The notes: generated by a model not told the origin, from the letters alone. Counted from the first letter of the stretch, positions 4,226-49,989 are shown. The stretch is DNA of 64,000 bases from an uncultured Gemmatimonadales bacterium (GCA_963840215.1 CAWIYG010000001.1:583704-647703); one strand, 5' to 3'. A program made the numbers and translations.

Positions 4226-4779
4226 CCCACCGCCACTCACGCGCGGTACCGGCCCTGCTGGCCGCGCTCGTGCTTCCCCTCGCCGGAGCCTGCGCCCACG
4301 GCGGCGGCGGCGGCAGTACCAGCCCCAGGTCCGTCGCCTCGGGCACCTTCCGAAATGCCGCCGGCGAGCGCGTCGGCCTCGCCACGCTCAGCGACAGTGC
4401 CGGCGCCCTGCGGCTGGGTGTGAGCGTCGGGCAGTTGGACCCGGGGCCGCACGGGCTCCACTTTCACGCGCAGGGGACCTGCACGCCGCCCGATTTCGCG
4501 TCCGCGGGCCCGCATTTCAACCCCGAGCGCAAGCTGCACGGCCGCCTCAATCCCGACGGGCCACACCTCGGCGACCTGCCGAACCTGGTCGTGGGAGCCG
4601 ACGGGTCGGCGGACACGAGCTTCGCGGTCTCGAGCGAGCTCGCCGCCCCCGGACCGCACTCGCTGCTGCAGCCCGGCGGGACGGCCATCGTCATCCATGC
4701 GAAGCCGGACGACGAGCGCACCGACCCGAGCGGCGATTCGGGTGACCGCGTGGCGTGCGCCGTGATCGAGCCCGACTAA
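4222..4779 (+). CDS. sodC: Cu/Zn superoxide dismutase, lipoprotein
   Basis: Lipobox LAGAC; HGLHFH, AGPHFNP, HG...PHLGDL, IVIH, GDRVAC; ATGA overlap with the upstream gene. Confidence 0.9.
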   Translation: MTHRHSRAVPALLAALVLPLAGACAHGGGGGSTSPRSVASGTFRNAAGERVGLATLSDSAGALRLGVSVGQLDPGPHGLHFHAQGTCTPPDFASAGPHFNPERKLHGRLNPDGPHLGDLPNLVVGADGSADTSFAVSSELAAPGPHSLLQPGGTAIVIHAKPDDERTDPSGDSGDRVACAVIEPD

Positions 4780-34850: not shown

Positions 34851-35312
34851 ATGGCCGCGCCCTGGATCGCGCTGCTCGCGCTCGCGCTCGCCGCCGGGCG
34901 GGCCCACCCGATCCACACGGCGGTGACCGAGGTGACACAGGAGGACGCGAGCGGCCGGACCTCGATCCTGGTGCGGGCGTACGCCGACGATTTCGCCGCC
35001 GCTGTGCCCGCGTGGGATGGCCCGGCGCCGGCCGACTCCGGGATGGCACGCTATCTCCGCTCGACGCTCGCGCTCGCGGACCGCACCGGGCGCCCGGTGC
35101 GCCTGGCCTGGATCGGCGCCGAGCGCTCGGGTGAGGTGATCCTGCTCCGCCTCCGCGGCGAGGTCCCGGGCGGGCTCGCTGGGGCGCGGATCACGAGCCT
35201 CGTGCTGTGCGAGCGCTTCGAGGACCAGGTGAACGTCGTGCGCGCGGCGTACGCCGGTCGCACCACGACGCTCCTCTTCACCAGGGGCGAGACGTCCAAA
35301 GTTCTCCCGTGA
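34851..35312 (+). CDS. DUF6702-like exported protein
   Basis: Signal peptide then HPIHTAVTE; RAYADDF, ERFEDQVNVV. Confidence 0.72.
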   Translation: MAAPWIALLALALAAGRAHPIHTAVTEVTQEDASGRTSILVRAYADDFAAAVPAWDGPAPADSGMARYLRSTLALADRTGRPVRLAWIGAERSGEVILLRLRGEVPGGLAGARITSLVLCERFEDQVNVVRAAYAGRTTTLLFTRGETSKVLP

Positions 35313-35410
35313 CCGAGGCTGCTTGTGGACGCTCCACGGTGGCGTGTAGACTCTCAGTTGTTCCACGCGCCGATGCCGCCGTTCTCGGGAGTGTCTTCGA
35401 CCCATGCCGC

Positions 35411-36010
35411 ATGTCTGACCCAGCCGCCCTGCCGTCCGTCGACGGCGAACTCATCGCGCGCGCCGCGCGCGGTGACGAGCGGGCGATCGGGCAGCTGTAC
35501 GATCGCTACGGTGGCGTGCTCTACGCCGTCGCGTACCGCATCGTGGGGCAGCGGGCCGACGCGGAAGAGGCGGTCCTCGAAGCGTTCGCCCAGGCCTGGC
35601 GCGACGCGCCCCGGTTCGAGGCGGGCCGCGGCTCGGTGGCGGGCTGGCTCACGATGATCGCCCGGAGCCGGGCGCTCGACATGGTCCGGGCCCGGAGCCG
35701 GCGCGACCGGATCACGGCCTCCGCGGCGGCCGATCGGCCGAACACCTCGCCGGCTATGGGGGAGTTCCGCCCGGACCCGGCCAAGGCCCTCGAGCACGAC
35801 GAGCGGCGGCACCAGGTCCACCAGGCGCTGCAGACGCTGAGTCCGCCCCAGCGGCAGGCGATCGAGCTGGCATACTTCGAGGGACTGTCCCAGTCGGAGA
35901 TCGCCGAGCGGCTCCAGGAGCCGCTCGGCACCGTGAAGACGCGGGTGCGGCTCGGCATGCAGAAGCTGCGCGAGTGTCTGCGGCCCTTCTACTTCGAGCG
36001 TGGCATATGA
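35411..36010 (+). CDS. ECF RNA polymerase sigma factor (SigK-like)
   Basis: LYDRY, DAEEAVLEAF, WLTMIARSRALD, LAYFEGLSQSEIA..LQEPLGTVKTRVRLG. Confidence 0.93.
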   Translation: MSDPAALPSVDGELIARAARGDERAIGQLYDRYGGVLYAVAYRIVGQRADAEEAVLEAFAQAWRDAPRFEAGRGSVAGWLTMIARSRALDMVRARSRRDRITASAAADRPNTSPAMGEFRPDPAKALEHDERRHQVHQALQTLSPPQRQAIELAYFEGLSQSEIAERLQEPLGTVKTRVRLGMQKLRECLRPFYFERGI

Positions 36011-36825
36011 CCGGCCCGGCTGACGACGCGCCGCTCGACCTCGCCGCCGCCTACACCCTTGGCGCGCTGTCGCCCGAGGAGGCGCGGGAATTCGAGGTGT
36101 TCGTCGCGAGTTCGCCGGAGGCGCAGCGTGAAGTGGCGGAGTACCGCGAGGTGGCGGCGCTGCTCGCCCTGGGTGGCGAGGCGGCCGCGGCCGGCGACAC
36201 CCTGCGCGAGCGAGTGCTGGCGCGAATCGGCGAGACCAAGACACGCGCCATCCCGACTGGAGCCGCACCCGGAACGCCCGCCGCGGCGGCGCCCGCGCGC
36301 GTCCAGGGCGTGCCGTGGCTCGCGCTTGCCGCCAGCCTGCTCCTGGCCGTCGGCCTGGGCGCCGCCCTGGTCTCGGCGCGGGGACGGCTCGCGGCGGTCG
36401 AGACCGAGCTCGCGGCGCGCGAGCTGGCGCTGGCCCAGTTCCGCAAGCGCCTCACGGAGCGCGAGGCGACCCTCAACTCGATCCTGGATCCAGCGGTCCG
36501 GCTGTTCCAGCTCACCGCGACCGGCGACGCCGAGCCCGGGATTCAGCTCTTCTGGAATCGGCAGCAGCAGCGTGCCATCGTGCACGCCTACCGCCTCAAG
36601 GCGTTGCCCTCCGGCCGGGCGTACCAGCTGTGGTTCTTCAGGGACGGGAAGCCGGTGCCGTCGGTCACGTTCAAGCCCGAGCCGGACGGCCACGCCAAGG
36701 TGGAGAGTATTCCGGTGCCGACGGACGGCTCGGTCAGCGCCGCGGCCGTGACCGTCGAACCCGAAGCCGGCTCCGCCCAGCCGACCTCGCCCATCGTGAT
36801 GGTGGGAACGCTGCAGCAGTCCTGA
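36007..36825 (+). CDS. Anti-sigma factor, RskA-type
   Basis: LAAAYTLGAL, single TM, coiled coil, YQLW, AVTVEPEAGS.QPT; ATGA overlap with the sigma gene. Confidence 0.9.
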   Translation: MTGPADDAPLDLAAAYTLGALSPEEAREFEVFVASSPEAQREVAEYREVAALLALGGEAAAAGDTLRERVLARIGETKTRAIPTGAAPGTPAAAAPARVQGVPWLALAASLLLAVGLGAALVSARGRLAAVETELAARELALAQFRKRLTEREATLNSILDPAVRLFQLTATGDAEPGIQLFWNRQQQRAIVHAYRLKALPSGRAYQLWFFRDGKPVPSVTFKPEPDGHAKVESIPVPTDGSVSAAAVTVEPEAGSAQPTSPIVMVGTLQQS

Positions 36826-36832
36826 CCCCGAC

Positions 36833-37726
36833 ATGCACCGGCGCACGGCGGAGATGCAGGCGCGGCGCGCGGTTGCCCTGGCGATCGCGGTGGTGGCCCA
36901 CGCCGCCGTCCTCGCTGGACAGGCGGCCCCGGATGCTGCCGCCGAACGCCCGGCGTACGTCGCGTGGCTCACAACGGCCCGCACCTCACCACGCGCCGCG
37001 ATCGCCCAGCAGCCCATCGGCGCCGGCCTCCGGCTCGGACCGCCCGACGCCGACGTGCCCCTCGACGGCCTCGCCGAGCAGCGGGTGGAGCAGCGCGGCG
37101 GCGCGATCACCCTCGCGTCCGCGGGTGGCTCGCGGCCCATCACGCGCGGGGCGCCCGTCCGCCTCGGATCGTACACGCTGACCGCCGACGGGCCACCCGG
37201 ACGGGCGGTGCTCACGGTCTTCGGCCCCCGGCACACCGCCAAGCCTCCCCTCCACTACGACCATCAGCCCGGCCTCGTCTTCGTCGGGCCCCTGCTTGCG
37301 CCCGAGTCCAGGGGCACCGTGCGCGTGCTCGGCGCGGATGGCATCGAGGTCGAGGCGGCCGAAGCCGGCAGCGTGCTGGTGCCGATCGGCGGCGGGCGCG
37401 TGCGCCTTCGGGTGCGGCGGCTGCCCATCGCCGGCGGAGAGGAATCGGAGCTGGAGATCTTCTTCCGGGACGGCACGAACGGACGGGGCACCTATCCGGC
37501 CGGGCGGTTCGTCGCCCTGGTGCCCGATCGGGACGGGCGGTACCGCCTGGACTTCAATGGCGCCCGCAATCCGTTCTGCGCCTACAGCTCGGCGTATCCG
37601 TGCCCAGCGCCATGGCGAGGGAATGCGATCGACGCGCCGGTCGAAGCGGGCGAACGGTATGCGGGCGGCGGGCTCGAGGCGCCGGCCGAGCCACCGGATC
37701 CGGTTACTCCGAAGGCCCGGCCGTGA
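36833..37726 (+). CDS. DUF1684 domain exported protein
   Basis: FRDGTNGRGTYPAGRF, LDFNGARNPFCAYSSAYPCP, N.I..PVEAGER. Confidence 0.88.
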   Translation: MHRRTAEMQARRAVALAIAVVAHAAVLAGQAAPDAAAERPAYVAWLTTARTSPRAAIAQQPIGAGLRLGPPDADVPLDGLAEQRVEQRGGAITLASAGGSRPITRGAPVRLGSYTLTADGPPGRAVLTVFGPRHTAKPPLHYDHQPGLVFVGPLLAPESRGTVRVLGADGIEVEAAEAGSVLVPIGGGRVRLRVRRLPIAGGEESELEIFFRDGTNGRGTYPAGRFVALVPDRDGRYRLDFNGARNPFCAYSSAYPCPAPWRGNAIDAPVEAGERYAGGGLEAPAEPPDPVTPKARP

Positions 37727-39003
37727 GATCGGCGCTCTGGGCCGTGGCGGCGGGCCTCGTCGTGTGGGCGCCTTCAGCACCGGGTCCGGCGGCGCGGCCC
37801 CTGCCATCCGCCGTCCCGCCGCGGCCTGCGCTGACCGGCGACCGGCAGCCAGGTGCCTCGTCGAGCGTCGCGGGTGCCTGGCGCGCGGCACTCGATCTGG
37901 CCGGGGGCGCGCTGCCCTTCGCGCTCGAGCTCGCAGGCGGAGGGGCCCGCTGGCGGGGCACCCTCTGCAACGGCCGCGTGTGCCAGCCGCTGTCCGCGGT
38001 GCGCGTGACCCCCGACAGCGTGACGCTCGAAATCGCCGACTACGACGCGACGATCCAGGCGAGGCTTGCGGGTGACTCCCTCATCGGCGCCTATCGCAAC
38101 GTGGGCAACCGCGGCCCGCGGGTGATTCCGTTCCGCGCGGCGCGCGGCCGCTGGCCGGTGACCCATGCGCCGGCCGCGCTCGCGGGCCGATGGGATGCCA
38201 CCTTCTTCTCGGACTTCGGGTCGAGCCCGAGAGTGTTCGAGCTGCGGGACGGGCCTCAGGGGTTCGAGGGGACGATGATCTCGAACACCGGCGACTACGG
38301 CCACTTCGCCGGGCAAGTGCGGGGCGACAGTTTCGCCCTGGCGCACTTCGATGGCGCCTACGTCTACATGCTGACCGGGGCCCGCCACGGCGACACCCTG
38401 CGCGGCGTCTTCCATGCAGGGCTCCGGACCCAGACGCCGTGGGTCGCGGTCCGCAGCACCGGCGCGGCCCACCTCAAGACACCGACCGAGATCACCACCG
38501 CCGACACCAGCGCCCCGTTCCGGTTCGCCTTTCCCGACCTCGAGGGACGGCTGGTGACCGAGCGGGACCCGCGATTCGCCGGCAAGGTGCTGCTGGTGGA
38601 TGTCTTCGGAAGCTGGTGCCCGACGTGTCATGACGCCGCGCCCCAGTTGGTCCGGCTGTACCGGAAGTACCACGCGCGTGGGCTCGAAATCGTGGGATTG
38701 GCCTACGAGGTCACCGGCGACACCGCGATCGACGCGCGGCAGGTGCGCCGGTACCGCCGGAAGTTCGGCATTTCGTTTCCGCTGCTGCTCGCCGGGATCA
38801 ACGATACGGAGGCGGCCGCGGCGACGCTGCCGCAGCTCCGGGGATTCACCTCGTTTCCGACGACCGTCTTCCTCGGGCGGGACGGACGCGTCCGGCTGGT
38901 GCACGCAGGCTTCTACGGCCCGGCGACGGGCGCGCAGCACCAGCGGATGGTCCGCGAATTCGAGCGGGAGGTGGAGCGGCTCCTGGCCGAGCGGCCGGAG
39001 TGA
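37723..39003 (+). CDS. Exported TlpA-family disulfide reductase with two N-terminal beta domains
   Basis: GSWCPTCHD, GLEIVGLAYE, SFPTTVFLGRDG; repeated G.W.A segments in the N-terminal part. Confidence 0.88.
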   Translation: MRSALWAVAAGLVVWAPSAPGPAARPLPSAVPPRPALTGDRQPGASSSVAGAWRAALDLAGGALPFALELAGGGARWRGTLCNGRVCQPLSAVRVTPDSVTLEIADYDATIQARLAGDSLIGAYRNVGNRGPRVIPFRAARGRWPVTHAPAALAGRWDATFFSDFGSSPRVFELRDGPQGFEGTMISNTGDYGHFAGQVRGDSFALAHFDGAYVYMLTGARHGDTLRGVFHAGLRTQTPWVAVRSTGAAHLKTPTEITTADTSAPFRFAFPDLEGRLVTERDPRFAGKVLLVDVFGSWCPTCHDAAPQLVRLYRKYHARGLEIVGLAYEVTGDTAIDARQVRRYRRKFGISFPLLLAGINDTEAAAATLPQLRGFTSFPTTVFLGRDGRVRLVHAGFYGPATGAQHQRMVREFEREVERLLAERPE

Positions 39004-39034
39004 GCCGGCGGGCGGGCCGCCCTCGGGCGGACCG

Positions 39035-39631
39035 CTATTTGGTCTTGACGCCTGCGGTCGTCGCGGCCCGATCCACCCGGAGACCGAGGTACTCGCCCGC
39101 GATCGCGTGTCCGGGGACGCCGCACAGCATCCAGTACCAGCCCGCCTCATCGGCCGTGAACGTCGTACGGTCGCCCTGCCCCGCCTGGAGCCCCGCGGTA
39201 ACCATCCGGGTCATCGCGTTGGTGAACGCCGGGCGACCTCCCTCGAGCGGCAGCTTCTCGCGCTCGGCCATGACGACCAGGCTGTGCGGCGAAGTCGAGT
39301 CGGCCGAGCGCCAGTCCCACTGCACCGTCCAGTTGAGCGGCACCACGATCTGGAGATCGCCGTGGTGGTGTCCGTTGAGCAGCGCGGGATTCCCGGCGGA
39401 CCCAGGAGTGACCTGCAGCGCGACCGTCACGGTCCGCCCGGCGGTGTCGGCGACAAGCCATGGCGGCGTCTCCGAGGGCGGCGCCTCCGAGGGCTGCGCG
39501 GCCGCCCGGGTGGTCGGGGCGGCGGGGGACGCAGCGGGAGCCGTCTGGGCCGATCCGCACGCGGAAGCCGCGCCTAGGGCGAAGAGCGCGGCCGCGCCGG
39601 CGCGCCGGCAGTGGAGGATCACATGCGCCAT
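39035..39631 (-). CDS. Sulfocyanin-like cupredoxin lipoprotein
   Basis: Lipobox ASAC; NG...G.LQIVVP.NWTV, PHSL, AGWYWMLCGVPGHAIAGEY; RBS GAGGAGG. Confidence 0.82.
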   Translation of the reverse strand: MAHVILHCRRAGAAALFALGAASACGSAQTAPAASPAAPTTRAAAQPSEAPPSETPPWLVADTAGRTVTVALQVTPGSAGNPALLNGHHHGDLQIVVPLNWTVQWDWRSADSTSPHSLVVMAEREKLPLEGGRPAFTNAMTRMVTAGLQAGQGDRTTFTADEAGWYWMLCGVPGHAIAGEYLGLRVDRAATTAGVKTK

Positions 39632-39709
39632 GTGTCGGTCTGGCCTCCTCTTCGGGTCGTCGGTACCTTGAGTGGCTTCCGGGTCGGAACTTAATCGAGG
39701 AGAATCGCG

Positions 39710-41200
39710 ATGGCCGGACTACTCTCGAGAGAGCGGATCGTCGCGGGACCGGGGTTCAACCGCTGGCTGGTACCGCCGGCCGCCCTGGCGATCCATCTCT
39801 CGATCGGGATGGCGTACGGCTTCAGCGTGTTCTGGCTGCCGCTCAGCAGGGCCGTCGGCCTGACCCAGCCCGTCGCGTGTCCCGCGGACATGAACATCTT
39901 CCAGCACATCGTCGCGACGAACTGCGACTGGAAGATCAGCATGCTCGGCTGGATGTACACCCTCTTCTTCGTCTTCCTCGGCTCGTCCGCCGCCCTGTTC
40001 GGCCGCTGGCTGGAGCACGCGGGGCCGAGGAAGGCGGGCGTCGTCGCGGCGTTCTGCTGGGGCGGCGGCTTCCTGCTCTCCGCCCTCGGCGTCCACCTGC
40101 ATCAGATCTGGCTCATGTGGCTCGGCTCCGGCGTGATCGGGGGATGCGGCCTGGGCCTGGGCTACATCTCGCCGGTCTCGACCCTCATCAAGTGGTTTCC
40201 CGACCGCCGCGGCATGGCGACGGGGATGGCGATCATGGGATTCGGTGGCGGCGCGATGATCGGGGCGCCGCTGGCCGACCGGCTCATGAAGCACTACGCG
40301 ACGGCGACCTCGGTGGGGGTGGAGGAGACGTTCGTCACGATGGGCATCATCTACTTCATCGCGATGATGGCCGGCGCCTTCGGGTACCGGGTCCCGCCGC
40401 CCGACTGGAAGCCGGCGGGCTGGGTGCCGCCAGTGCGGCAGAGCGGCATGATCACGACCCGGCATGTCCACGTCGACCAGGCCTGGCGGACGCCGCAGTT
40501 CTGGATGCTCTGGGCGGTGCTCTGCCTCAACGTGAGCGCCGGGATCGGCGTGATCGGCATGGCCTCTCCCATGATCCAGGAGGTCTTCGGCGGGCGGTTG
40601 ATCCAGCTCCCGGACCTGACGTTCGCGCAGTTATCCCCGGCTCAGAAGGCGCAGCTGGCCACCACGGGGGCGGCCTTCGCCGCGCTGCTGAGCCTGTTCA
40701 ACATCGCCGGCCGGATCGGGTGGGCCTCGCTGTCCGACTACATCGGCCGGAAGCGCACCTATTTCATCTTCTTCGCGCTGGGCGCCGCGCTCTACGCCTC
40801 GGTCCCCTTCGCGGGGCAGAGCGGCAAGGTGGGGTTGTTCGTGGCGCTCTTCTGCCTGATCCTGACGATGTACGGCGGCGGGTTCGCCACCATTCCGGCC
40901 TACCTGGCCGACATGTTCGGGACCCAGTTCGTCGGGGCCATCCACGGGCGGCTGCTCACGGCCTGGTCGGCGGCGGGCATCCTGGGACCGGTGCTGGTCA
41001 ACTACATCCGCGAGTTTCAGATCGATCGCGGGATCCCGGCCGCGCAGGCGTACAACGTGACCATGTACGTCCTGGCCGGCCTGCTGGTGGCGGGCCTGTT
41101 CGCCAACCTGGCGGTCCGCCCGGTCGACGAGCGGTACTATATGTCCGACGACGACCTGGCCCGGGAGCGGGGGCTGGCGCCGGCGGGAGGCCGCCCGTGA
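39710..41200 (+). CDS. OFA-family MFS transporter (oxalate:formate antiporter-like)
   Basis: FNRWLVPPAALAIHLSIG, GYISPVSTLIKWFPDRRGMATG.AIMGFGGGA, YGGGFATIPAYLAD.FG. Confidence 0.92.
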   Translation: MAGLLSRERIVAGPGFNRWLVPPAALAIHLSIGMAYGFSVFWLPLSRAVGLTQPVACPADMNIFQHIVATNCDWKISMLGWMYTLFFVFLGSSAALFGRWLEHAGPRKAGVVAAFCWGGGFLLSALGVHLHQIWLMWLGSGVIGGCGLGLGYISPVSTLIKWFPDRRGMATGMAIMGFGGGAMIGAPLADRLMKHYATATSVGVEETFVTMGIIYFIAMMAGAFGYRVPPPDWKPAGWVPPVRQSGMITTRHVHVDQAWRTPQFWMLWAVLCLNVSAGIGVIGMASPMIQEVFGGRLIQLPDLTFAQLSPAQKAQLATTGAAFAALLSLFNIAGRIGWASLSDYIGRKRTYFIFFALGAALYASVPFAGQSGKVGLFVALFCLILTMYGGGFATIPAYLADMFGTQFVGAIHGRLLTAWSAAGILGPVLVNYIREFQIDRGIPAAQAYNVTMYVLAGLLVAGLFANLAVRPVDERYYMSDDDLARERGLAPAGGRP

Positions 41201-41285
41201 GCGATTGCATAAAATCCCCCAGCCCTGAATATTATTACGGCCGTGGCCGGGACCGGTCTCCATCCCTCAGCCCGGGGAGCAGCGC

Positions 41286-41423
41286 ATGAGCGAGCAGGGA
41301 CGGTCGCCGGAGGGGGCTCCCGGCCAGTGGGGCCTGGTGGCGTTGGCGTGGGTCCTGGTTGGAGTTCCGCTGCTGTGGGGGGTCTGGAACACCCTGCTGA
41401 AGGCGGCCGCGCTCTTCCGCTAG
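41286..41423 (+). CDS. 45-aa membrane partner peptide of the OFA transporter (absent from the ORF track)
   Basis: MSEQGRSPEGAPGQWGLVALAWVLVGVPLLWGVWNTLLKAAALFR; W..VG.PL.WGV..T..KA..LF pattern typical of small genes following this MFS subfamily; RBS GGAG. Confidence 0.8.
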   Translation: MSEQGRSPEGAPGQWGLVALAWVLVGVPLLWGVWNTLLKAAALFR

Positions 41424-41533
41424 CCCGACCGGCGCAAAATCTGACACCAGAGCTCGAACGCAAACCTTTGCATTGAATAGAGTTGACGCCCTGGTACCAG
41501 GCCCGATGGTCGCACTGTCGGGATTCTGGGGTC

Positions 41534-41576
41534 TTGACGGGCGCACCGTGCATCGCAGATTGTAACCGGTTCAACA
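41534..41576 (+). promoter_or_regulatory. Candidate promoter and LacI-type operator upstream of the PQQ dehydrogenase
   Basis: TTGACG at 41534, weak -10 (CAGATT), then near-palindrome TGTAACCGGTTCAA at 41561-41574. Confidence 0.5.
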
Positions 41577-41838
41577 CTTAGCGCCCCCGGATCGACGACG
41601 CCCTCAGGGCGACCACCCACGGCACCGACCACCCCCCCGCTGTGTCCGCTAGCGCCCGTTCGGGGCCATGGCGGGGCGCGCAGTCGGGTGCCACGATCGG
41701 CTCGATGGGGCCGTTTCCCGGCACTGCCTCGCCGGGACGCAGCTGATACCGGATCTTGGGGGCTTCTCCCCACCGATCCTTCGCGGGCCGCCACGGTCCG
41801 TTCCCGCACAGCAGGTCCTGCTGAAAGGAAGAGTGTTC

Positions 41839-43506
41839 ATGAGCATGAGGACGCGTTGGTGGGTAGCCCCGGTGCTCCTCGCCGCGGCGAGCCAGGCTGC
41901 GGCCCAAAGCGGCGACTGGACGACGTACGGCGGCAACGACTGGAATCAGCGGTATTCCACCCTCAAGAGCATCACCACCTCGAACGTGTCGCAGCTGGTC
42001 CCCCGGATGATCTTCCAGACCGGCATCACCAAGCTGGGCTCGTTCGAGAATACGCCGATCGTCACGAACGGCATGATGTACGTGACGACGCCGTACAACA
42101 CCCTCATCGCCTACGACCTGAAGACCAAGAAGGAGCAGTGGCGCTACGAGCACAAACTGGGGACCACCATCACCTGCTGCGGCCCGAACAATCGCGGGGT
42201 GGCCATTCACGGCGGCGCCCACCTGTACATGGGAACGCTCGACGCCCACCTGATCGCGTTCGACGCCAAGGACGGCAAGGTCCTGTGGGACAAGGAAGTC
42301 TCCGACCCGGCCATGGGCTACAGCATCACCCACGCTCCCCTCATCATCGGTGACAACGTCATCGTCGGCGTCTCCGGCGGCGAATACGGCATCCGCGGCC
42401 ACGTGACCGCGTACAACGCCATGTCGGGTGAGCAGGTGTGGCGCTGGTACTCGATCCCCGCCCCCAAGGGCGACTCCACCTTCGACGACAAGGCCCCGAA
42501 CGGCTGGTTCGGCACCTGGGCCCCGAAGGCCGAGGATGCCGATCTCCACCGCGACCTCACCAAGGAGAAGGGCGACAGCGCGAAGTTCGCCGACGCCTGG
42601 AAGGTCGGCGGCGGCGGCGTGTGGATGACGCCGGCGTACGACAAGGAGAGCAACGCGCTGTTCGTGGCCGTGGGCAACCCGTCGCCCGATCTCGACGGCA
42701 GCGTCCGCCCGGGCGACAACCTCTACACCGACTGCGTCGTCGCCATCGACGCCACCACCGGCAAGACCAAGTGGTACTACCAGACCGTGCCCCACGACGT
42801 CTGGGACCTCGACGCCGTTTCCCCGCCAGTCGTCGCGACCGTCGGCGGCAAGAAGGTCGTCGTGCACGCGGGCAAGACCGGCTGGCTGTACGTGCTCGAC
42901 GCGGCCGACGGCAAGCTCGTCCGCAAGAGCGACGCCTTCGTCCCGCAGGAGAACATGTTCGCGCTGCCCAGCGAGAAGGGCACGCGCATGCTCCCCGGCG
43001 CGAATGGCGGCGCGGAGTGGTCGCCGATCGCGATCGATCCGACGCTCAACTACGCGTTCGTCGCGGCGCTCCACCAGCCGATGAACTACATCGTGCACAC
43101 CGCGCCTTACGAGAAGGGCCGGCTCTGGCTCGGCTCCGCGTTCGTGGCCATCCCGGGCGAGCAGCAGTACGGGCTCTACTCGGCCATCGACCTCAAGACC
43201 GGCAAGATCGCCTGGCAGAACAAGGTGGATCAGCCGATGATGGGCGGCGCGCTGGCCACCGCCGGCAACCTCACCTTCACCGGTGAAGGCAACGGCAACT
43301 TCAACGCTTACAACTCCAAAACCGGCAAGCTGCTGTGGCAGTTCAACGGCGGCGCCGGCTGCAACTCGGCTCCGATGTCGTTCACCTTCGGCGGCGAGCA
43401 GTTCATCGCCGTGGCGTGTGGCGGCAACTTCCAGCTGAGCTTCCCCCTCGGCGATGCGTTGCTGGTCTTCGGCCTCCCTGCCAAGGCCAGCGCGATGAAG
43501 AAGTAG
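41839..43506 (+). CDS. Periplasmic PQQ-dependent alcohol dehydrogenase family protein; candidate lanthanide-dependent
   Basis: Signal peptide; DWTTYGG...QRYS.L, vicinal TCCGPNNRG, SGGEYGIRG, GNPSP, HDVWDLDA; Trp-docking beta-propeller repeats; no heme-c motif. Confidence 0.9.
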   Translation: MSMRTRWWVAPVLLAAASQAAAQSGDWTTYGGNDWNQRYSTLKSITTSNVSQLVPRMIFQTGITKLGSFENTPIVTNGMMYVTTPYNTLIAYDLKTKKEQWRYEHKLGTTITCCGPNNRGVAIHGGAHLYMGTLDAHLIAFDAKDGKVLWDKEVSDPAMGYSITHAPLIIGDNVIVGVSGGEYGIRGHVTAYNAMSGEQVWRWYSIPAPKGDSTFDDKAPNGWFGTWAPKAEDADLHRDLTKEKGDSAKFADAWKVGGGGVWMTPAYDKESNALFVAVGNPSPDLDGSVRPGDNLYTDCVVAIDATTGKTKWYYQTVPHDVWDLDAVSPPVVATVGGKKVVVHAGKTGWLYVLDAADGKLVRKSDAFVPQENMFALPSEKGTRMLPGANGGAEWSPIAIDPTLNYAFVAALHQPMNYIVHTAPYEKGRLWLGSAFVAIPGEQQYGLYSAIDLKTGKIAWQNKVDQPMMGGALATAGNLTFTGEGNGNFNAYNSKTGKLLWQFNGGAGCNSAPMSFTFGGEQFIAVACGGNFQLSFPLGDALLVFGLPAKASAMKK

Positions 43507-43515
43507 CAGCCAACC

Positions 43516-43565
43516 TCGGCCGGCAGGGTCCCCGCGGTCGGGATGCCTTGCCGGCCGATTCCTTT
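43516..43565 (+). terminator. Intrinsic terminator after the PQQ dehydrogenase
   Basis: TCGGCCGGCAGGG...CCTTGCCGGCCGA followed by TTCCTTT. Confidence 0.65.
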
Positions 43566-43731
43566 GATTGACAGGTCCGCTTTCTGGGAGGTGAACACAT
43601 CGCTCACTCGTCCGACGAATGACCCCGCGCGCCAGGCGTTCCGCCGCCGCGGTCCCGATTGTGTGGTGCAGTCACGTCCCGAAGGTTGGCTGTCGTTGGC
43701 GGTCAATACTTACTCCGAGGGAGAAGCACCT

Positions 43732-44937
43732 ATGAAGAAAGTCGCACTGTTGTGCTTGGGTCTGGCGATGGGCGCGGCCAATGCCGCGGAAGCCCAGCTC
43801 ACGATGCAGATGAGCAACGGCTGGAGCTTTACGTTCGCCGGCAACGTGAACGCGTTCGCGATCTATGAGTCGCAGAGCGAAAGCGGCGCCACCGCCACAC
43901 CCGGCGGTCTCGTCGGCGTCGGCGGCAAGGGATTCAACATCCGCACCGGCCTGCTGCCAGCGTTCGCGGTGTTCGATGCCAAGGGCAAGGAAGGCGAGAC
44001 GGATCTCGGCGTGCACTTCGGCTTCGCGCCCCAGATCCAGTGCGGCAACCAGGCGCACGACTGCTTCGGCGCCCAGATCGACATGCGCCAAGTCTTCCTG
44101 ACGGTCGGCGGCTCGTGGGGCCAGATTCTCGCCGGTCGCGAGATCGGGCTCTTCAACCGGCAGAACATCCTGACCGACCAGACCCTGTTCGGCATCGGCG
44201 CCACCGGCGGGATCAACGGCGGCGGCACCACGCTGGGTCGCATCGGCTTCGGCTACATCTATCCGCAGTTCGTCGCGCAGATGACCTACTCGACGCCGGC
44301 GGGCCGGCCGTCGCAGCTCGCGATCGGCATCTTCCAGCCGTCGTCCCTCGCCGGCAGCGGTGGCGCGCTCTACGACGAAACCAAGGTCCCGAGGGTCGAG
44401 GCCGAGTTCACCTACAGCAGCGGCAACGTCAAGGGCTGGGTGAACGGCACGGCGCAGAATGCCAAGAGCCTCCTCACCGACGAGTCAAAGACCGCCACGG
44501 GCGTCGGCGGCGGCCTCCGGTTCGGTAATGCCATGTTCTCGCTGACCGGTAGCGGTTACTGGGGCAAGGGCATCGGCACCACGCTGCAGTTCAACGGCGT
44601 GAATTCCGGTGGCGGCTCGGCGGTCGACGGCCTCGGCGTCGGCGACGACGGCGAGCTCCGGACCTCCTACGGCTTCATTGGCCAGGTCACGGTGACCCCG
44701 GCCAACAGCAAGGTGACGCTCGCCGGCAGCTTCGGGTCCAGCTACCTCAAGGCCACCGATGGCGAGACCGCGTTCAAGACCGAGAACACGCTCATCTCGG
44801 GCGGCATCTACTACCAGGCCACCAAATCCCTCAAAGTCGTGGGCGAGGGCAACTACGCCTGGACCAAGAACAAGGAGTCGGCCGCGGACAAGAACAAGAC
44901 CTTCGCGCCGACCGTTGGCCTGATGCTGTTCTTCTAG
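43732..44937 (+). CDS. Outer-membrane porin
   Basis: Signal peptide AEA-Q; amphipathic beta strands; C-terminal VGLMLFF with terminal Phe. Confidence 0.85.
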   Translation: MKKVALLCLGLAMGAANAAEAQLTMQMSNGWSFTFAGNVNAFAIYESQSESGATATPGGLVGVGGKGFNIRTGLLPAFAVFDAKGKEGETDLGVHFGFAPQIQCGNQAHDCFGAQIDMRQVFLTVGGSWGQILAGREIGLFNRQNILTDQTLFGIGATGGINGGGTTLGRIGFGYIYPQFVAQMTYSTPAGRPSQLAIGIFQPSSLAGSGGALYDETKVPRVEAEFTYSSGNVKGWVNGTAQNAKSLLTDESKTATGVGGGLRFGNAMFSLTGSGYWGKGIGTTLQFNGVNSGGGSAVDGLGVGDDGELRTSYGFIGQVTVTPANSKVTLAGSFGSSYLKATDGETAFKTENTLISGGIYYQATKSLKVVGEGNYAWTKNKESAADKNKTFAPTVGLMLFF

Positions 44938-44960
44938 GCAGCTGCAGGTGCAGGTCACAC

Positions 44961-44996
44961 GCGGCGGCCTCCCGTTCCGGGAGGCCGTCGTCGTTT
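44961..44996 (+). terminator. Intrinsic terminator after the porin
   Basis: GCGGCGGCCTCCC-gttcc-GGGAGGCCGTCGT followed by CGTTT. Confidence 0.65.
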
Positions 44997-45049
44997 GGTC
45001 GCGGGCGGTGTACATTTCGCGCTCCCACTTCCTCACACCGGAGCACTCG

Positions 45050-45469
45050 ATGGCCTATCGTCGGTTCCTGGCAGGCTGTGTCGCGCTCGCAGGATGCGCC
45101 CACGCGTACGCATCGCCCACCGTGGTCCGGACCAGCGCGGCGTCCGGAGTCGTGTTCGATTGCATCAAGCAGCAGCTCGGAGTCCTTGGGTACAAACAGA
45201 GCTCGATCGACACCGATGCGCTGCGGGTGAACGCCAGCAAGCTGGACCTGATGACCCGGCGCAGCGATACCCAGTTCCGGCGCATCATCAACAAGCTGCA
45301 GGCCGAAGTCGGCGCCGAGGCCGACGGGCAGACGAGGCTCGAGGTGGTGCCGCAAACCTTCGCCGAGTACACCACCCAGCGGGGACCGACCGAAGAAGAG
45401 GAGAAGCCGTCGAAGGATGTCGCCGCCGACGGCCAGCGCCTCGTGGAGGCCTGTCAGACCGCGTCGTAA
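45050..45469 (+). CDS. Hypothetical lipoprotein
   Basis: RBS GGAG; MAYRRFLAGCVALAGC lipobox; two further Cys. Confidence 0.75.
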   Translation: MAYRRFLAGCVALAGCAHAYASPTVVRTSAASGVVFDCIKQQLGVLGYKQSSIDTDALRVNASKLDLMTRRSDTQFRRIINKLQAEVGAEADGQTRLEVVPQTFAEYTTQRGPTEEEEKPSKDVAADGQRLVEACQTAS

Positions 45470-45599
45470 GGAGATGGCCGAGGGACGTCGAGACGCGGGG
45501 CGCCTCGGCCGGAGCGCCCCGCGCGGTATCAGTACCATCCGTTCCCGGCTGCTGCTAGCTTCCACGGCGAACTCCTACCACCGATCGAAGGAGAACGCA

Positions 45600-46538
45600 G
45601 TGGCGGTCCCGCTGGTCCAGTTGACGCGCTCGGCCCTCGCGGCCGAAGCCCCGACATCCATCTCCGCCGCCCCGGTGAGAAAGCCGGGGTGGCTCAAGGT
45701 CAAGGCCCCCGGCGGACCGAACTATGTGCATCTGAAGAACTTGATGCGCGAGCTCGGGCTCCACACCGTGTGCGAAGAAGCCCGCTGCCCCAACATCGGC
45801 GAGTGCTGGGAGCACAAGGCGGCGACCTTCATGATCCTGGGCGACGTCTGCACGCGGAACTGCACCTACTGCGCGGTCTCCCACGGCACTCCCACGGCCT
45901 TCGATCCGCTCGAGCCGGTGCGCCTGGCCGAAGCGGTCGAGCGGATGGGGCTCGCCCACGTGGTCATCACGTCGGTCGACCGCGACGACCTCCCGAACGG
46001 CGGCGCCGAGGCGTTCGCCGGCTGCATCACCGAGATCAAGCGCCGGCTCCCCGAGACCTCGGTCGAGGTCCTGATTCCCGACTTCAAGGGCTCCGAGCGG
46101 GCGCTCCGCCTGGTGATGGACGCGGGGCCCGACATCCTCAATCACAACCTCGAGACCGCGGAGCGGCTCTACCGGCTGGCTCGCCCAGGCGGCCGCTACG
46201 ACCGGGCGCTGGCGCTGCTGGCCAACGCCCGGCGGATGAACGCCGAGGCGCTGACCAAGAGCGGCATCATCCTGGGAATGGGCGAGGAATGGGACGAGGT
46301 GCTGGTCTGCATGCGGGACCTTCGGCGCAGTGATGTCAACATCCTCACGCTCGGGCAATACCTCCGGCCTTCCGGCAGTCACCTGCCGGTGGCCCGCTAC
46401 TACACGCCCCAGGAGTTCGCCGAGCTGCGCGACCTCGGGCTCGCCATGGGCTTCGCGCACGTGCAGTCGAGTCCGCTCACCCGGTCCTCGTACCATGCGT
46501 GGGAGCAGGTGACCGCCGCCACCGGGAGCGGCGCCTGA
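45600..46538 (+). CDS. lipA: Lipoyl synthase
   Basis: KPGWLK, CEEARCPNIGEC, CTRNCTYC, NHNLET, GQYLRP, RSSYHA. Confidence 0.96.
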   Translation: MAVPLVQLTRSALAAEAPTSISAAPVRKPGWLKVKAPGGPNYVHLKNLMRELGLHTVCEEARCPNIGECWEHKAATFMILGDVCTRNCTYCAVSHGTPTAFDPLEPVRLAEAVERMGLAHVVITSVDRDDLPNGGAEAFAGCITEIKRRLPETSVEVLIPDFKGSERALRLVMDAGPDILNHNLETAERLYRLARPGGRYDRALALLANARRMNAEALTKSGIILGMGEEWDEVLVCMRDLRRSDVNILTLGQYLRPSGSHLPVARYYTPQEFAELRDLGLAMGFAHVQSSPLTRSSYHAWEQVTAATGSGA

Positions 46539-47554
46539 TGGCCGGCACCGCAGTGCCCAAGCCACGCGCCCGCCGGCGCGGCCTCGACCCCGCACGCGCG
46601 GAGGAGTACCGCGGCTGGCTGCGCCAGATGGTGCTGATCCGGCGGTTCGAGGAGAAGGCCGGCGAGGCCTACAGCCTGGGCAAGATCGGCGGCTTCTGCC
46701 ACCTCTACATCGGGCAGGAGGCGGTGGCGGTCGGGAGCCTCGCGGCCCTGCGTCCGGACGACTACATCACCTGCTCCTACCGCGAGCACGGCCACGCCCT
46801 GGCGCGCGGGATCAGCTCGCGCGCCGTCATGGCGGAGCTGTTCGGCAAGGCCGCCGGCTGCAGCGGGGGCAAGGGCGGGTCGATGCACCTGTTCGACGCC
46901 TCGCTGGGGTTCCTGGGCGGACACGGGATCGTCGGCGGGCATATCCCGCTCACGACCGGCATGGCCTTCGCCGCCAAATACCGCAACACCGACCAGGTGG
47001 CGATCTGCTACTTCGGCGAGGCCGCGGTCAACAACGGGGCCTTCCACGAGGCGCTCAACATGGCCGCGCTGTGGAAGCTGCCGGCGATCTACATCTGCGA
47101 GAACAACCGCTACGGCATGGGCACGGCGCTTGAGCGCGCCAGCGCCATCTACGACATCTCGGAGCGGGCGTGCTCGTACGACATGGCCAACGAGGTCGTG
47201 GACGGCCAGGACGTCCTGGTGATGCACGCGGCCATGGAGCGGGCGGTCGAGCGGGCGCGGAAGGACAAGCACCCGACCCTGCTCGAGGTTCGCACCTACC
47301 GCTTCATGGGCCACTCGATGTCCGACCCGATCCACGGCCACTACCGCACCCGCGAGGAGGTCGAAGACCAGCGGAAGCGGGATCCGATCGCGGTCTGGTC
47401 GCAGCGCCTGGTCGAGGATGGGCTGATGGAGCAGGCCGCGGTCAAGGCGCTCGACAAAGAGGTGATGGAGGAAGTCGAGGATGCGTACAAGTTCGCGGAG
47501 GAAGCGCCGGATCCGGAGGCGGGAGAGCTGTACACGCATGTGTATGCGGACTGA
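46538..47554 (+). CDS. pdhA: Pyruvate dehydrogenase E1 alpha
   Basis: GFCHLYIGQEA, GKGGSMH, GEAA...N TPP motif, YRFMGHSMSDP. Confidence 0.95.
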   Translation: MAGTAVPKPRARRRGLDPARAEEYRGWLRQMVLIRRFEEKAGEAYSLGKIGGFCHLYIGQEAVAVGSLAALRPDDYITCSYREHGHALARGISSRAVMAELFGKAAGCSGGKGGSMHLFDASLGFLGGHGIVGGHIPLTTGMAFAAKYRNTDQVAICYFGEAAVNNGAFHEALNMAALWKLPAIYICENNRYGMGTALERASAIYDISERACSYDMANEVVDGQDVLVMHAAMERAVERARKDKHPTLLEVRTYRFMGHSMSDPIHGHYRTREEVEDQRKRDPIAVWSQRLVEDGLMEQAAVKALDKEVMEEVEDAYKFAEEAPDPEAGELYTHVYAD

Positions 47555-47614
47555 GGTGAGGTGGGATCAGGGTGACGATGGCCGCGCGCATACTGGCGCG
47601 GGGTGTTGACGGAG

Positions 47615-48595
47615 ATGGCCATCGTCACCTACCGGGACGCGCTCAACCAGGCCCTCCGCGAGGAGATGCAGCGGGACCCCGACGTATTTCTCATGGGTGA
47701 GGAAGTCGGGGTGTACCAGGGCGCCTACAAGGTGAGCCGCGGGCTGCTCGACGAGTTCGGCGCGATGCGCGTGGTGGACACGCCGATCACCGAGCTGGGG
47801 TTCGCCGGCGTCGGCGTGGGGGCAGCCATGGTGGGCCTCCGGCCGGTCATCGAGTTCATGACCTGGAACTTCGCCCTCCTCGCCATCGATCAGCTCGTCA
47901 ACTCGGCAGCCAAGATGCGCTACATGTCCGGCGGCCAGGTCGGCGTGCCGGCGGTCTTTCGCGGGCCCGGTGGGTCCGCCCTGCAGCTCGGCTCGCAGCA
48001 CTCCCAGGCCTTCGAGAGCTACTACGCGCACATCCCGGGACTCAAGGTGGTCATGCCCGCCACACCCGCCGACGCCAAGGGCCTCCTCAAGAGCGCCATC
48101 CGCGACGACAATCCGGTCGTGTTCATCGAGGGGGAGATGCTCTACAACCTGAAGGGTGAAATCCCGGAAGGCGAGCATGTCGTCCCGCTCGGCAAGGCGG
48201 ACGTCAAGCGGGCCGGGAGCGACGTCACGATCGTCTGCCACTCGAAGACCGTGGCGGTCGCCCTCAAGGCCGCCGAGCAGCTCGCGGCCGAGGAGATCGA
48301 CGCCGAGGTGCTCGACCTCCGGACCATCCGCCCGCTCGACACCGAGGCGGTCCTGACCTCGGTGGCCCGCACCCATCGGTGCGTGGTGGCGGAGGAGGGC
48401 TGGCCGTTCGCGGGGATCGGGGCCCAGGTGGTGGACACGATCCAGCGCGAGGCGTTCGACGAGCTCGACGCGCCGATCCTCCGCGTCACCGGCGCCGACG
48501 TTCCCATGCCCTATAACAAGCACCTCGAGAAGGCCGCGAAGGTCGACCCCGCCCGGGTCGCCGCCGCGGTGCACTCGGTGCTGTACCGCGACTGA
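47615..48595 (+). CDS. pdhB: Pyruvate dehydrogenase E1 beta
   Basis: GEEVGVYQGAYKVS, DTPITE.GF, QHSQ, DLRTIRPLD. Confidence 0.95.
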   Translation: MAIVTYRDALNQALREEMQRDPDVFLMGEEVGVYQGAYKVSRGLLDEFGAMRVVDTPITELGFAGVGVGAAMVGLRPVIEFMTWNFALLAIDQLVNSAAKMRYMSGGQVGVPAVFRGPGGSALQLGSQHSQAFESYYAHIPGLKVVMPATPADAKGLLKSAIRDDNPVVFIEGEMLYNLKGEIPEGEHVVPLGKADVKRAGSDVTIVCHSKTVAVALKAAEQLAAEEIDAEVLDLRTIRPLDTEAVLTSVARTHRCVVAEEGWPFAGIGAQVVDTIQREAFDELDAPILRVTGADVPMPYNKHLEKAAKVDPARVAAAVHSVLYRD

Positions 48596-48598
48596 CCG

Positions 48599-49966
48599 AT
48601 GGCAACCAAGGTGGTCATGGAGGCGCTCTCGCCCACGATGGAAGAGGGGCGCCTCGTCGAGTGGAAGAAGAGCGAAGGCGATCCGGTGGCCGTCGGCGAC
48701 GTGCTGGCCGAGGTCGAGACGGACAAGGCGGTGATGGAGCTCGTGGCCCGCGCGGGCGGCACGCTGCTCAAGCAGGTGGTGGCCGCCGGCACCACGGTGC
48801 CGGTCTCCCAGCTGGTGGCGCTGATCGGCGAGCCCGGCGAGGCGATCGAGAACGGCAAGCCCGCGCCCGCCCAGGAGCAGCAGGCGACCCAGCCCACCCC
48901 CGGTGCCAACCGGCCGGAGTCGATGCCGCCGGCCCCGCCCGCGCCCAAGGCGACCGAGAGCGCGCCGGGCCCCGCGCCCGCGCCAAGCCCCGCGCCCGCG
49001 CGCCCGGCTGCCTCCGCCGCCCCGCCGGCGCCCGCTCCACCTGCCCCGGTGACTCCGGCGGGACGCGTGAAGGCATCGCCGCTCGCGCGCCGGATGGCCG
49101 CTGAACGTGGCATCGATCTCGGCGGCATCGCCGGGACCGGCCCTGAGGGTCGAGTGGTGCTTCGCGACCTCGAGGGAGCCCCCGGGGCGGTGCGCCCGGC
49201 TGCGGAGCCCGCGGCGGGCGCGGCCGCCCCGGCGCCGGGTGCTGCACCGTCCCGACCCGTCGTCGTCCGCGCGCCCGACGGCGCGCCCTACACGGACGTT
49301 CCCCTCAGCCAGATCCGGAAGACCATCGCCCGCCGCCTGGCGCAGTCGATCGGCCCGATCCCGACGTTCTACCTCACCACCGAGGTGGACATGGAGCGGG
49401 CGTGGGACGCGCGCGAAGGGCTCAAGGCGCTCGGCGACGGGCCGAAGGTGTCGTTCAATGACGTCATCATCAAGGCCGTGGCGACCGCGCTGCGCCAGCA
49501 CCCCGCCTGCAACGCCTGGTGGCAGGACGACCGGATCCGCTACTGGCACGAGGTCCACGTGAGCATGGCCGTGGCCATCGACGAGGGGCTCATCACCCCG
49601 GTCATCCGCAACACCGACCTCAAGTCGCTGCGGGAGATCGCGGCCGAGTCGCACGACCTGGCGGCCCGGGCCCGGGAGCGCCGGCTCACGCCGGAGGAGT
49701 ACACCGGCGGCACCTTCTCGGTGTCGAACCTGGGCATGCTCGATATCGACGAGTTCACGGCCGTGATCAATCCGCCCGAGGCCGGGATCCTGGCGGTCGG
49801 CCGGATTGTTCAACAAGCGGTAGTGCACGAGGGCCAGCTGGCGGTCCGGCGGCGGCTCCGGCTGACGATGTCGTGCGATCACCGCGTGATCGACGGCGCC
49901 ACCGGAGCGCAGTTCCTGAAGACGCTCAAGGCGATGCTGGAGAACCCGCTGGCGCTGGTGTGGTAG
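48599..49966 (+). CDS. pdhC: Dihydrolipoamide acetyltransferase E2 (single lipoyl domain)
   Basis: LSPTMEEG, ETDKAVME, ASPLARR, DHRVIDG. Confidence 0.95.
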   Translation: MATKVVMEALSPTMEEGRLVEWKKSEGDPVAVGDVLAEVETDKAVMELVARAGGTLLKQVVAAGTTVPVSQLVALIGEPGEAIENGKPAPAQEQQATQPTPGANRPESMPPAPPAPKATESAPGPAPAPSPAPARPAASAAPPAPAPPAPVTPAGRVKASPLARRMAAERGIDLGGIAGTGPEGRVVLRDLEGAPGAVRPAAEPAAGAAAPAPGAAPSRPVVVRAPDGAPYTDVPLSQIRKTIARRLAQSIGPIPTFYLTTEVDMERAWDAREGLKALGDGPKVSFNDVIIKAVATALRQHPACNAWWQDDRIRYWHEVHVSMAVAIDEGLITPVIRNTDLKSLREIAAESHDLAARARERRLTPEEYTGGTFSVSNLGMLDIDEFTAVINPPEAGILAVGRIVQQAVVHEGQLAVRRRLRLTMSCDHRVIDGATGAQFLKTLKAMLENPLALVW

Positions 49967-49989
49967 CGACCATTCACTAGAGGACATCC

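Follow-up and report, generated by a model that had tools for sequence, protein, structure and literature searches.

We analysed a 64,000-nucleotide stretch of DNA, referred to here as the window, from an uncultured soil Gemmatimonadales bacterium (GCA_963840215.1 CAWIYG010000001.1:583704-647703), with attention to a gene cluster at positions 39035 to 44937 that encodes a pyrroloquinoline quinone (PQQ)-dependent alcohol dehydrogenase near a small copper protein. The window has a G+C content of about 70% and lies on contig C1 of a 3.6 Mb assembly of six contigs with an estimated completeness of 75%. A first-pass annotation, made from the sequence alone, had described five genes here (a cupredoxin, a major facilitator superfamily (MFS) transporter, its 45-amino-acid (aa) partner, a PQQ dehydrogenase and a porin) and had proposed that the dehydrogenase delivers electrons to the cupredoxin instead of a cytochrome c. 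All five genes are present at the positions it had assigned. The features of the locus are:

39035..39631, minus strand: cupU, a sulfocyanin-like cupredoxin and probable lipoprotein (Pfam SoxE)
39710..41200, plus strand: OFA-type MFS transporter, like the L-lactate transporter SfMCT (NF049980, MFS_1)
41286..41423, plus strand: 45-aa MFS small subunit (NF047966)
41533..41562, plus strand: conserved promoter-like element (CTTGAC, 17 nt, AGATT), from an alignment of upstream regions
41839..43506, plus strand: periplasmic PQQ-dependent alcohol dehydrogenase, type I, without a haem domain (Pfam PQQ, TIGR03075 score, PedH match)
43516..43558, plus strand: stable hairpin right after the dehydrogenase stop codon, a candidate terminator or attenuator (folding against shuffles)
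43732..44937, plus strand: 16-strand outer-membrane porin without a sequence family (AlphaFold model and Foldseek)
44935..45010, plus strand: stable hairpin past the porin stop codon (folding against shuffles)
45050..45469, plus strand: small lipoprotein with no assigned family, whose position after the porin is kept in related loci

Comparison with related genomes leads us to favour, with moderate confidence, a periplasmic alcohol-oxidation module in which a lanthanide-type PQQ dehydrogenase would pass electrons to sulfocyanin-like cupredoxins and not to a dedicated cytochrome c. Electrons probably leave the enzyme via copper and not haem, because its conserved partners are small copper proteins and a porin, not the usual cytochrome c.

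The dehydrogenase and its known relatives

The open reading frame (ORF) of the dehydrogenase opens at 41668. Its likely start, the ATG at 41839, is preceded by AAAGGAAGAG and yields a signal peptide; this start and that of the porin (43732) each follow a purine-rich ribosome-binding stretch. The protein matches Pfam PQQ (PF01011; E 1.2e-82, 278.9 bits against a cut-off of 26.7) and scores just under the cut-off of the NCBIfam methanol/ethanol family TIGR03075 (453.1 bits against 480.05). The closest solved structure is PedH (6zcv, E 2.1e-83), followed by ExaA, quinohaemoprotein alcohol dehydrogenases and XoxF.

Alignment with these structures revealed the residues expected of a lanthanide enzyme. 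TCCGPNNRG aligns with the vicinal Cys-Cys of PedH and ExaA, GGEYG and GNPSP with the Glu and Asn metal-ligand stretches of PedH (GGE, GNP), and WDLDA with WDFDG of PedH, where the Ca-dependent ExaA has WDFSG. An extra Asp two residues past the catalytic Asp (D-x-D) marks lanthanide-dependent enzymes, and we take the PedH residues aligned with E160, N258, D301 and D303 (mature numbering) to be lanthanide ligands. These four residues, together with C91 and C92, are invariant in 62 of 62 aligned members of the clade to which the enzyme belongs, in keeping with the lanthanide-type assignment of the first-pass annotation, and from them we infer that the dehydrogenase uses a lanthanide. Members of the clade are common in soil data, where 7,999 of 8,000 scored candidates matched at E <= 1e-60.

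None of the 43 window proteins scanned against Pfam is XoxJ-like or encoded by a pqq gene, as had been noted before. The absence of pqq genes holds for the window and not for the genome: a profile search of the genome contigs placed pqqB, pqqC and pqqE above curated cut-offs at C2:568260-571220, and thus the genome can make PQQ. Two further members of the dehydrogenase family are encoded elsewhere, one on contig C5 and one, XoxF-like, on C6. The C6 gene is followed by genes for a XoxJ-like binding protein, a pentapeptide protein and a beta-propeller protein.

The window enzyme resembles PedH and ExaF, lanthanide type I ethanol dehydrogenases that work with cytochrome c550 (PedF/ExaB), in its eight-bladed PQQ propeller, Cys-Cys pair, Glu/Asn/D-x-D ligands, periplasmic location and lack of a haem domain. 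It differs from them in its score below the TIGR03075 cut-off and in its locus, which has cupredoxin and porin genes and no cytochrome c gene. With the XoxF-XoxG-XoxJ methanol dehydrogenase system it shares the D-x-D signature and PQQ. In contrast to that system, it shares no more than about 31-36% identity with the C6 copy (over three aligned pieces), is separated from the XoxF-like group by a long branch on our tree, and has neither xoxJ nor xoxG adjacent to it and no SBP_bac_3 protein nearby.

In a distinct architecture, PQQ dehydrogenases 43-45% identical to the window enzyme lie behind a large N-terminal membrane domain (PMT_2, glycosyltransferase-39-like). These proteins are 1129-1222 aa long (P0001-P0005; G407:C71:15058-16575, G245:C109, G298:C88).

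Cupredoxins around the enzyme and fused to its relatives

As the first-pass annotation had stated, the window encodes no cytochrome c: in six frames, among ORFs of at least 60 aa, the sole CxxCH is the WCPTCH of a thioredoxin-like protein at 38617. To place the enzyme, 401 genomes of the phylum were sampled, of which 89 had a match at E <= 1e-140, and the flanks of 60 further loci were taken. The resulting tree (IQ-TREE, quick mode) has 96 rows and was midpoint-rooted for drawing only; L046, in which the enzyme is cut by a contig end, and L050, which has one in-frame TGA, were left out of it.

The window enzyme falls in a group of 63 rows, with a support of 98 in the Shimodaira-Hasegawa-like approximate likelihood ratio test (SH-aLRT). 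A cupredoxin gene lies within 3 kb of the enzyme in 50 of these rows and none does in 13, and a cytochrome c gene is found in none of the 63, so that the cupredoxin is indeed the conserved partner instead of a cytochrome c. The cupredoxins are of three types, namely cupU (32 rows), a second sulfocyanin-like protein that we call cupD (32 rows), and a plastocyanin-type protein with a twin-arginine translocation (TAT) signal, cupB (5 rows). In the neighbouring tree group, at about 50% identity, a cytochrome c gene follows the enzyme in 12 of 12 rows.

Gene order within the genus is not informative in itself. Thirteen orthologous loci (82-94% identity) keep the entire order of about 12 kb as far as their contigs reach: sigma factor, anti-sigma factor, DUF1684, redoxin, cupU, MFS, small subunit, enzyme, porin, lipoprotein, lipA and E1. 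Because plainly unrelated genes keep this order too, it says little on function. Linkage nevertheless exceeds adjacency once the comparison is widened, as the tree, rearrangements, fusions and co-occurrence all indicate.

Four layouts were found: cupU divergent from the enzyme, with or without the MFS pair between them; cupD directly downstream; cupB directly upstream; and cupB together with cupD. Most other genera of the family have cupU divergent upstream, then the enzyme, cupD and the porin. In paralogues at 75% identity (L044, L045, L071) a TTHB210-like protein and cupB are encoded upstream of the enzyme, and L055 and L061 have cupB plus cupD. Wherever a cupU locus offers at least 2.5 kb of room, the enzyme is within 3 kb (64 of 64, the loci being close kin). 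Across the 401 genomes, which include the unpublished G089 and G208, a search with the cupD-type protein of this genome found a sulfocyanin-like cupredoxin together with clade members (at least 59% identity) in 84 genomes, the clade without the cupredoxin in 0, the cupredoxin alone in 30 and neither in 287; given that the genomes are close kin, this table is no statistical test.

The TTHB210-like protein of the paralogous loci is 140 aa long (PF18197) and is encoded with the TAT-signal plastocyanin-type cupredoxin at L044:7963-8941 and L045:1052-2230. After the cupB-enzyme pair of L045 comes a COX2-like (CuA-type) ORF (3771-4430).

Natural fusions join the same two domains in one chain. A search of 1.84 billion representatives with a cupU profile gave 780 proteins at E <= 0.001. 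P0201 (741 aa) and P0211 (752 aa) consist of a PQQ dehydrogenase and a C-terminal SoxE domain with His, Cys, His and Met ligands, and the domains of P0273 (506 aa) come in this order too. Over 554 residues P0201 shares 46% identity with the window enzyme, and its Cys-Cys and D-Y-D are retained. Five longer PQQ dehydrogenases (35-42% identical to the window enzyme) have a plastocyanin/azurin-type domain after the propeller and keep WD[YLH]D. The fused proteins form their own group on the enzyme tree; a homologue search at near-enzyme length returned close orthologues only, and no fusions of about 700 aa.

By sequence, the fusion architecture is the layout of a quinohaemoprotein dehydrogenase with a predicted copper domain replacing haem. 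Type II quinohaemoprotein alcohol dehydrogenases (1kv9, 1kb0, 1yiq) have a homologous PQQ domain (E 7e-76 to 9e-66), and the relatives of our enzyme likewise carry a redox domain after the propeller. The fused or adjacent redox module is a cupredoxin here, in contrast to the haem c domain of the type II enzymes, and copper would therefore take electrons directly from PQQH2, not via haem.

Cupredoxins are known acceptors of other quinoproteins. Azurin is the acceptor of the type II quinohaemoprotein alcohol dehydrogenase of Pseudomonas putida HK5, and methylamine dehydrogenase and aromatic amine dehydrogenase, which are paired with amicyanin and azurin, respectively, are tryptophan tryptophylquinone (TTQ) quinoproteins. 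The arrangement proposed here would resemble the TTQ pairs in that a periplasmic quinoprotein hands electrons to a cupredoxin encoded beside it; it differs in its PQQ cofactor, in its fold and in the cupredoxin family.

To our knowledge, every characterized PQQ alcohol or methanol dehydrogenase of this fold gives electrons to haem c, and for that reason databases name the protein 'alcohol dehydrogenase (cytochrome c)'. In our literature search, no paper described a PQQ dehydrogenase that has a cupredoxin as its partner or as one of its domains. A preprint on lanthanide PQQ enzymes discusses, in the part available to us, cytochrome partners only, and its supplements might already classify the clade (10.64898/2026.07.10.737718).

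Predicted copper sites and the proposed path of electrons

CupU matches Pfam SoxE/sulfocyanin (PF06525; E 3.9e-13, 49.6 bits against a cut-off of 21) and is modelled as a cupredoxin fold with a mean predicted local distance difference test score (pLDDT) of 82.9, rusticyanin being nearest (E 1.5e-6). Sulfocyanin (SoxE), rusticyanin and auracyanin are blue copper proteins, either periplasmic or tethered to the membrane, that carry electrons to terminal oxidases, and cupU shares with them the SoxE domain, the rusticyanin-like fold and an N-terminal tether with a low-complexity linker. It differs in scoring below the cut-off of the sulfocyanin equivalog TIGR03094 (48.3 bits against 168.4) and in its axial ligand. 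The N-terminus (...LGAASAC, then GS, then an Ala/Pro/Thr-rich linker) contains a plausible lipobox, as judged by eye. However, the signal peptides of many cupU orthologues lack the lipobox Cys, again by eye, and the membrane tether previously suggested for the cupredoxin is thus not a conserved trait.

The copper ligands predicted for cupU are His, Cys and His, and a Glu occupies the position of the axial Met (CGVPGHAIAGE), a departure from the canonical His-Cys-His-Met set of type 1 copper. The axial Glu is invariant in 32 of 32 cupU orthologues, and the Cys and upstream His are kept in 31. The exception, L072 (L072:5724-6158), has Gly for the copper Cys and Arg for the upstream His; it keeps the other fold motifs, and the adjoining cupD is intact. 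Of the best 150 representatives of the cupU profile, 77 have Met at the axial position, 14 have Glu, 6 Gln, 4 Leu and 6 another residue; the other 43 are fragments or do not show the motif pattern. The cupU proteins form one group on a long branch of the cupredoxin tree (support 99).

CupU also carries an invariant EREK motif. The loop that contains it (EREK...GG, residues 71-88 of the mature domain, ~39209-39262, minus strand) is the sole long stretch of the model with pLDDT < 50. Conserved but unmodelled, the loop is a candidate docking element.

Nitrosocyanin, described in the available part of one article as the only natural red cupredoxin, has Glu in place of the equatorial His and His as its fourth ligand, and an axial carboxylate in the AcoP variant M171A gives a red centre (PMC10804444). 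CupU and nitrosocyanin are alike in having a Glu carboxylate in the ligand set; the Glu of nitrosocyanin stands at the equatorial His position, whereas that of cupU stands at the axial Met position in the C-terminal loop (comparison with the same part of PMC10804444). By analogy with these red-centre precedents, the axial Glu suggests that cupU may hold an unusual copper site.

CupD, in contrast to cupU, has the canonical His, C..H..M set, and it directly follows the enzyme in most other genera of the family. The orthologue in this genome, at C1:443325-443975, has the canonical ligands and, by eye, a lipoprotein-like N-terminus; it is 52-60% identical to cupD proteins and nests in their group with a branch support of 100. 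In this genus cupD lies about 180 kb from the locus. Each of five same-genus genomes (5 of 5) has one unlinked cupD copy, 225-240 kb from the enzyme where both are on the same contig (G004, G020). Because cupD has moved away in this genus, only cupU remains beside the enzyme in the window. The pairing with a cupredoxin proposed at first pass is supported, but the cupredoxin of the window itself is of the unusual axial-Glu type and the canonical cupD is distant.

In the mechanism that we favour, the substrate most likely crosses the outer membrane through the porin, for which the nearest folds, those of anion and dicarboxylate channels, give a lead only. The lanthanide-PQQ enzyme would oxidize the substrate, as its conserved residues suggest, and PQQH2 would reduce cupD, cupU, or both in series, one electron at a time, a step to which linkage, fusions and co-occurrence point. 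The cupredoxin would in turn reduce a terminal oxidase. In the ancestral Gemmatimonadales layout that we propose, cupU is divergent and the genes for the enzyme, cupD and the porin share one strand. The genus of the window has moved cupD away, and an unrelated MFS and small-subunit unit lies between cupU and the promoter of the enzyme.

More tentatively, the enzyme may feed a haem-free relay of two cupredoxins. The His-Cys-His-Glu site of cupU, possibly red or green and of low potential, would take electrons from PQQH2, and cupD would be the blue carrier to a CuA oxidase. Such a relay would parallel, with copper, the transfer from cytochrome cL to cH in methylotrophs, and the fused proteins would be 'quino-cupro-proteins'.

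It is also possible, though not probable, that cupD, although some 180 kb away here, is the sole real acceptor. CupU would then not be the carrier of the enzyme and would act in copper handling or redox sensing, or serve the thioredoxin-like and DUF1684 genes. In favour of this alternative, the canonical set of His, Cys, His and Met is found in the fused SoxE-type domains and in every cupD protein, and cupU has Glu in all 32 cases. The loss of copper ligands from cupU of L072 beside an intact cupD, the redoxin and DUF1684 genes that adjoin cupU in most loci, and the low pLDDT of the invariant EREK loop are consistent with it as well. However, cupU stays by the enzyme in eight loci without the redoxin and DUF1684 genes or the MFS (L059, L065, L067-L070, L072, L074), it keeps His, Cys and His in all but one of its orthologues, and it has been kept beside the enzyme in the very genus where cupD moved off.

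Several observations weigh against a cupredoxin route as such. The compared genomes are close kin, and the counts therefore overstate independent support. CupU, the window's own neighbour of the enzyme, lacks the axial Met, is separated from the enzyme by 2.2 kb and a separate transcription unit, and may be dispensable, given that L072 has lost its Cys and upstream His. The cupredoxin family also occurs in 30 of 317 genomes without the clade and may therefore be a general carrier. In the 13 clade rows that lack a cupredoxin, searched together with four non-clade loci, hidden Markov model (HMM) profiles of cupU, cupD and cupB found none. One of these rows, L051, begins at a contig end, and eight belong to another family of the order, with the order enzyme, small unknown protein, porin. 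A XoxF-like gene follows in five of the eight, and in three of these a CxxCH ORF closes the XoxF cluster, so that a cytochrome could serve in the loci of that family. Five of these other-family genomes were checked, and each has one unlinked sulfocyanin-like gene.

We consider it unlikely, however, that an unlinked c-type cytochrome serves the enzyme, as cytochromes serve PedH, ExaA and XoxF, with cupredoxin adjacency arising from, for example, shared periplasmic redox regulation. Candidate cytochromes are available: the lack of a cytochrome partner noted at first pass applies to the window, and elsewhere in the genome 19 coding-like ORFs contain CxxCH, of which the nearest on C1 is separated from the enzyme by about 92 kb. 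Two of the 19 (C6:531297-531587, C4:22088-22339) resemble the cytochromes that follow the 50% paralogues, and the five other-family loci with the enzyme-porin pair by a XoxF-like cluster point the same way. The public label 'alcohol dehydrogenase (cytochrome c)' also agrees with this alternative, although it derives from family membership alone. Against it stand the cytochrome c adjacency, seen in 0 of 63 rows of the clade but in 12 of 12 rows of its neighbour from the same genomes, the enzymes fused to cupredoxin domains, and the co-occurrence of a cupredoxin in 84 of 84 genomes with the clade.

That the linkage is mere inherited gene order among close relatives, without functional meaning, is very improbable: within the genus the 12-kb order is indeed intact in 13 of 13 loci, including the unrelated ECF sigma factor, lipA and an E1 subunit, but differing types of cupredoxin at differing positions flank paralogues and orthologues across genera, fused forms exist, and the neighbouring clade switches to cytochromes.

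If the cupredoxin route that we favour is correct, it rewires lanthanide-dependent alcohol oxidation to respiration in a major soil phylum and ties alcohol oxidation to copper supply. The natural PQQ-cupredoxin fusions would then serve the study of electron transfer from PQQ to copper, and cupU may expose a new natural copper site with an axial Glu.

Transcription units, porin and flanking genes

At first pass the dehydrogenase and porin genes had seemed to have separate promoters and terminators, and our analyses agree with this. An alignment of 39 regions upstream of the enzyme gene, from several genera, shows an element of CTTGAC, a 17-nt spacer and A..TT that is conserved in at least 80% of them; the window has it at 41533-41562, downstream of the small-subunit gene. 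It emerged only from the alignment, as a strict consensus scan returned 0 promoters and no plus-strand terminator. The hairpin past the enzyme stop folds at -35.9 kcal/mol (z -3.26; equalled by 0 of 200 shuffles), and the strong hairpin at the end of the porin gene at -42.8 kcal/mol (z -3.60; 1 of 200). Given a promoter-like element of its own for the enzyme and these hairpins, transcription probably proceeds in separate units for the MFS pair, for the enzyme and for the porin. A search of 38500-45600 against Rfam gave no RNA family at E <= 1.

Contigs from four soil RNA libraries (X1, X2, X3, X7) map onto the enzyme and porin genes with 90-99% likeness. They are short and mostly 90-95% alike, and hence come from relatives, so their thin cover over cupU and the MFS gene does not amount to silence. 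They show that relatives are present in the RNA libraries, nothing more.

The porin ORF opens at 43543, its likely start being the ATG at 43732 (MKKVALL...). No Pfam or NCBIfam family matched at E <= 0.01, Porin_OmpG_1_2 appearing only at E 0.058, and a profile of 34 sequences matched no PDB chain at E <= 1. The AlphaFold model is an all-beta barrel (pLDDT 77.4) with short inward-loop helices at residues 143-153. Foldseek placed DcaP first (6eus, E 1.2e-15; template modelling scores 0.65/0.74), followed by Omp32 (1e54), PorB (4aui) and OmpF. By its model, the protein is a 16-strand porin fold. Of the 63 clade rows, 35 have a porin gene no more than 3 kb from that of the enzyme, although many contigs stop early, and this recurrence upholds the porin as a partner.

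The MFS transporter scores 316.2 bits against the NF049980 L-lactate transporter family (cut-off 320), 157.5 bits against TIGR00890 (cut-off 374.85), and E 2.2e-35 for MFS_1. The 45-aa ORF matches the 'MFS transporter small subunit' NF047966 (48.6 bits against a cut-off of 24) and travels with the MFS gene in related loci. From these matches the pairing is clear, but not the substrate class; the pair may import a carboxylate. It stands between cupU and the enzyme in 24 of 32 loci, is missing from the same eight loci listed above, and lies upstream of the enzyme's own promoter. Contrary to the first-pass annotation, which had made it part of the module, the pair is an accessory insertion, probably transcribed separately and outside the core.

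The lipoprotein at 45050..45469 had no Pfam match at E <= 1, and its membership in the module is uncertain. Directly downstream (window 45417-51387) come lipA and the genes for E1-alpha, E1-beta, E2 and E3 of a 2-oxoacid dehydrogenase complex of the pyruvate or acetoin type. The lipA and 2-oxoacid dehydrogenase genes keep this place across genera of the family.

On the other side, genes for an extracytoplasmic function (ECF) sigma factor, a RskA-type anti-sigma factor, a DUF1684 protein and a TlpA/ResA-like thioredoxin (WCPTCH) occupy window 35207-39003 and directly adjoin cupU, and most of the family's loci have the block at this place. Next to a cupredoxin gene, a periplasmic thiol reductase could have a role in maturation of the copper site. 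Generic CxxCH flags at loci of at least 70% identity were all due to the WCPTCH of this thioredoxin-like neighbour and were dropped. Two flags in the 58-69% band were also dropped; one, in L077, was a subunit of a cbb3 oxidase at a distance of about 2.3 kb, and the other an ORF with CPICH in L095.

A number of genes seem to be broken. Cytochrome bd subunit I falls into two ORFs (window 13242-13640 and 14056-14589), the XoxF-like gene of C6 (G000:C6:544433-546006) is spread over three reading frames, and L111:8534-10901 holds a series of short ORFs in place of the single long gene expected. Taken with the completeness of 75% estimated for a six-contig assembly, this suggests frameshift errors in the assembly and not real pseudogenes.

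In some genera a small secreted protein without a Pfam family is encoded between the enzyme (or cupD) and the porin. It is found at L046:6270-6653 (minus strand) and L085:8684-9229 (plus strand), and also in L083, L089, L090 and L094-L097, with the motifs ...KEKDAY.SGF.AGA... and ...FPFAPSVY..Q.DD.YWW.DH.... The clade members L077 (3776-5164, 11045-13398) and L078, which are without cupredoxin and porin, have a FadL/TodX-type outer-membrane channel about 2 kb off and cbb3-type oxidase genes about 2.3 kb off.

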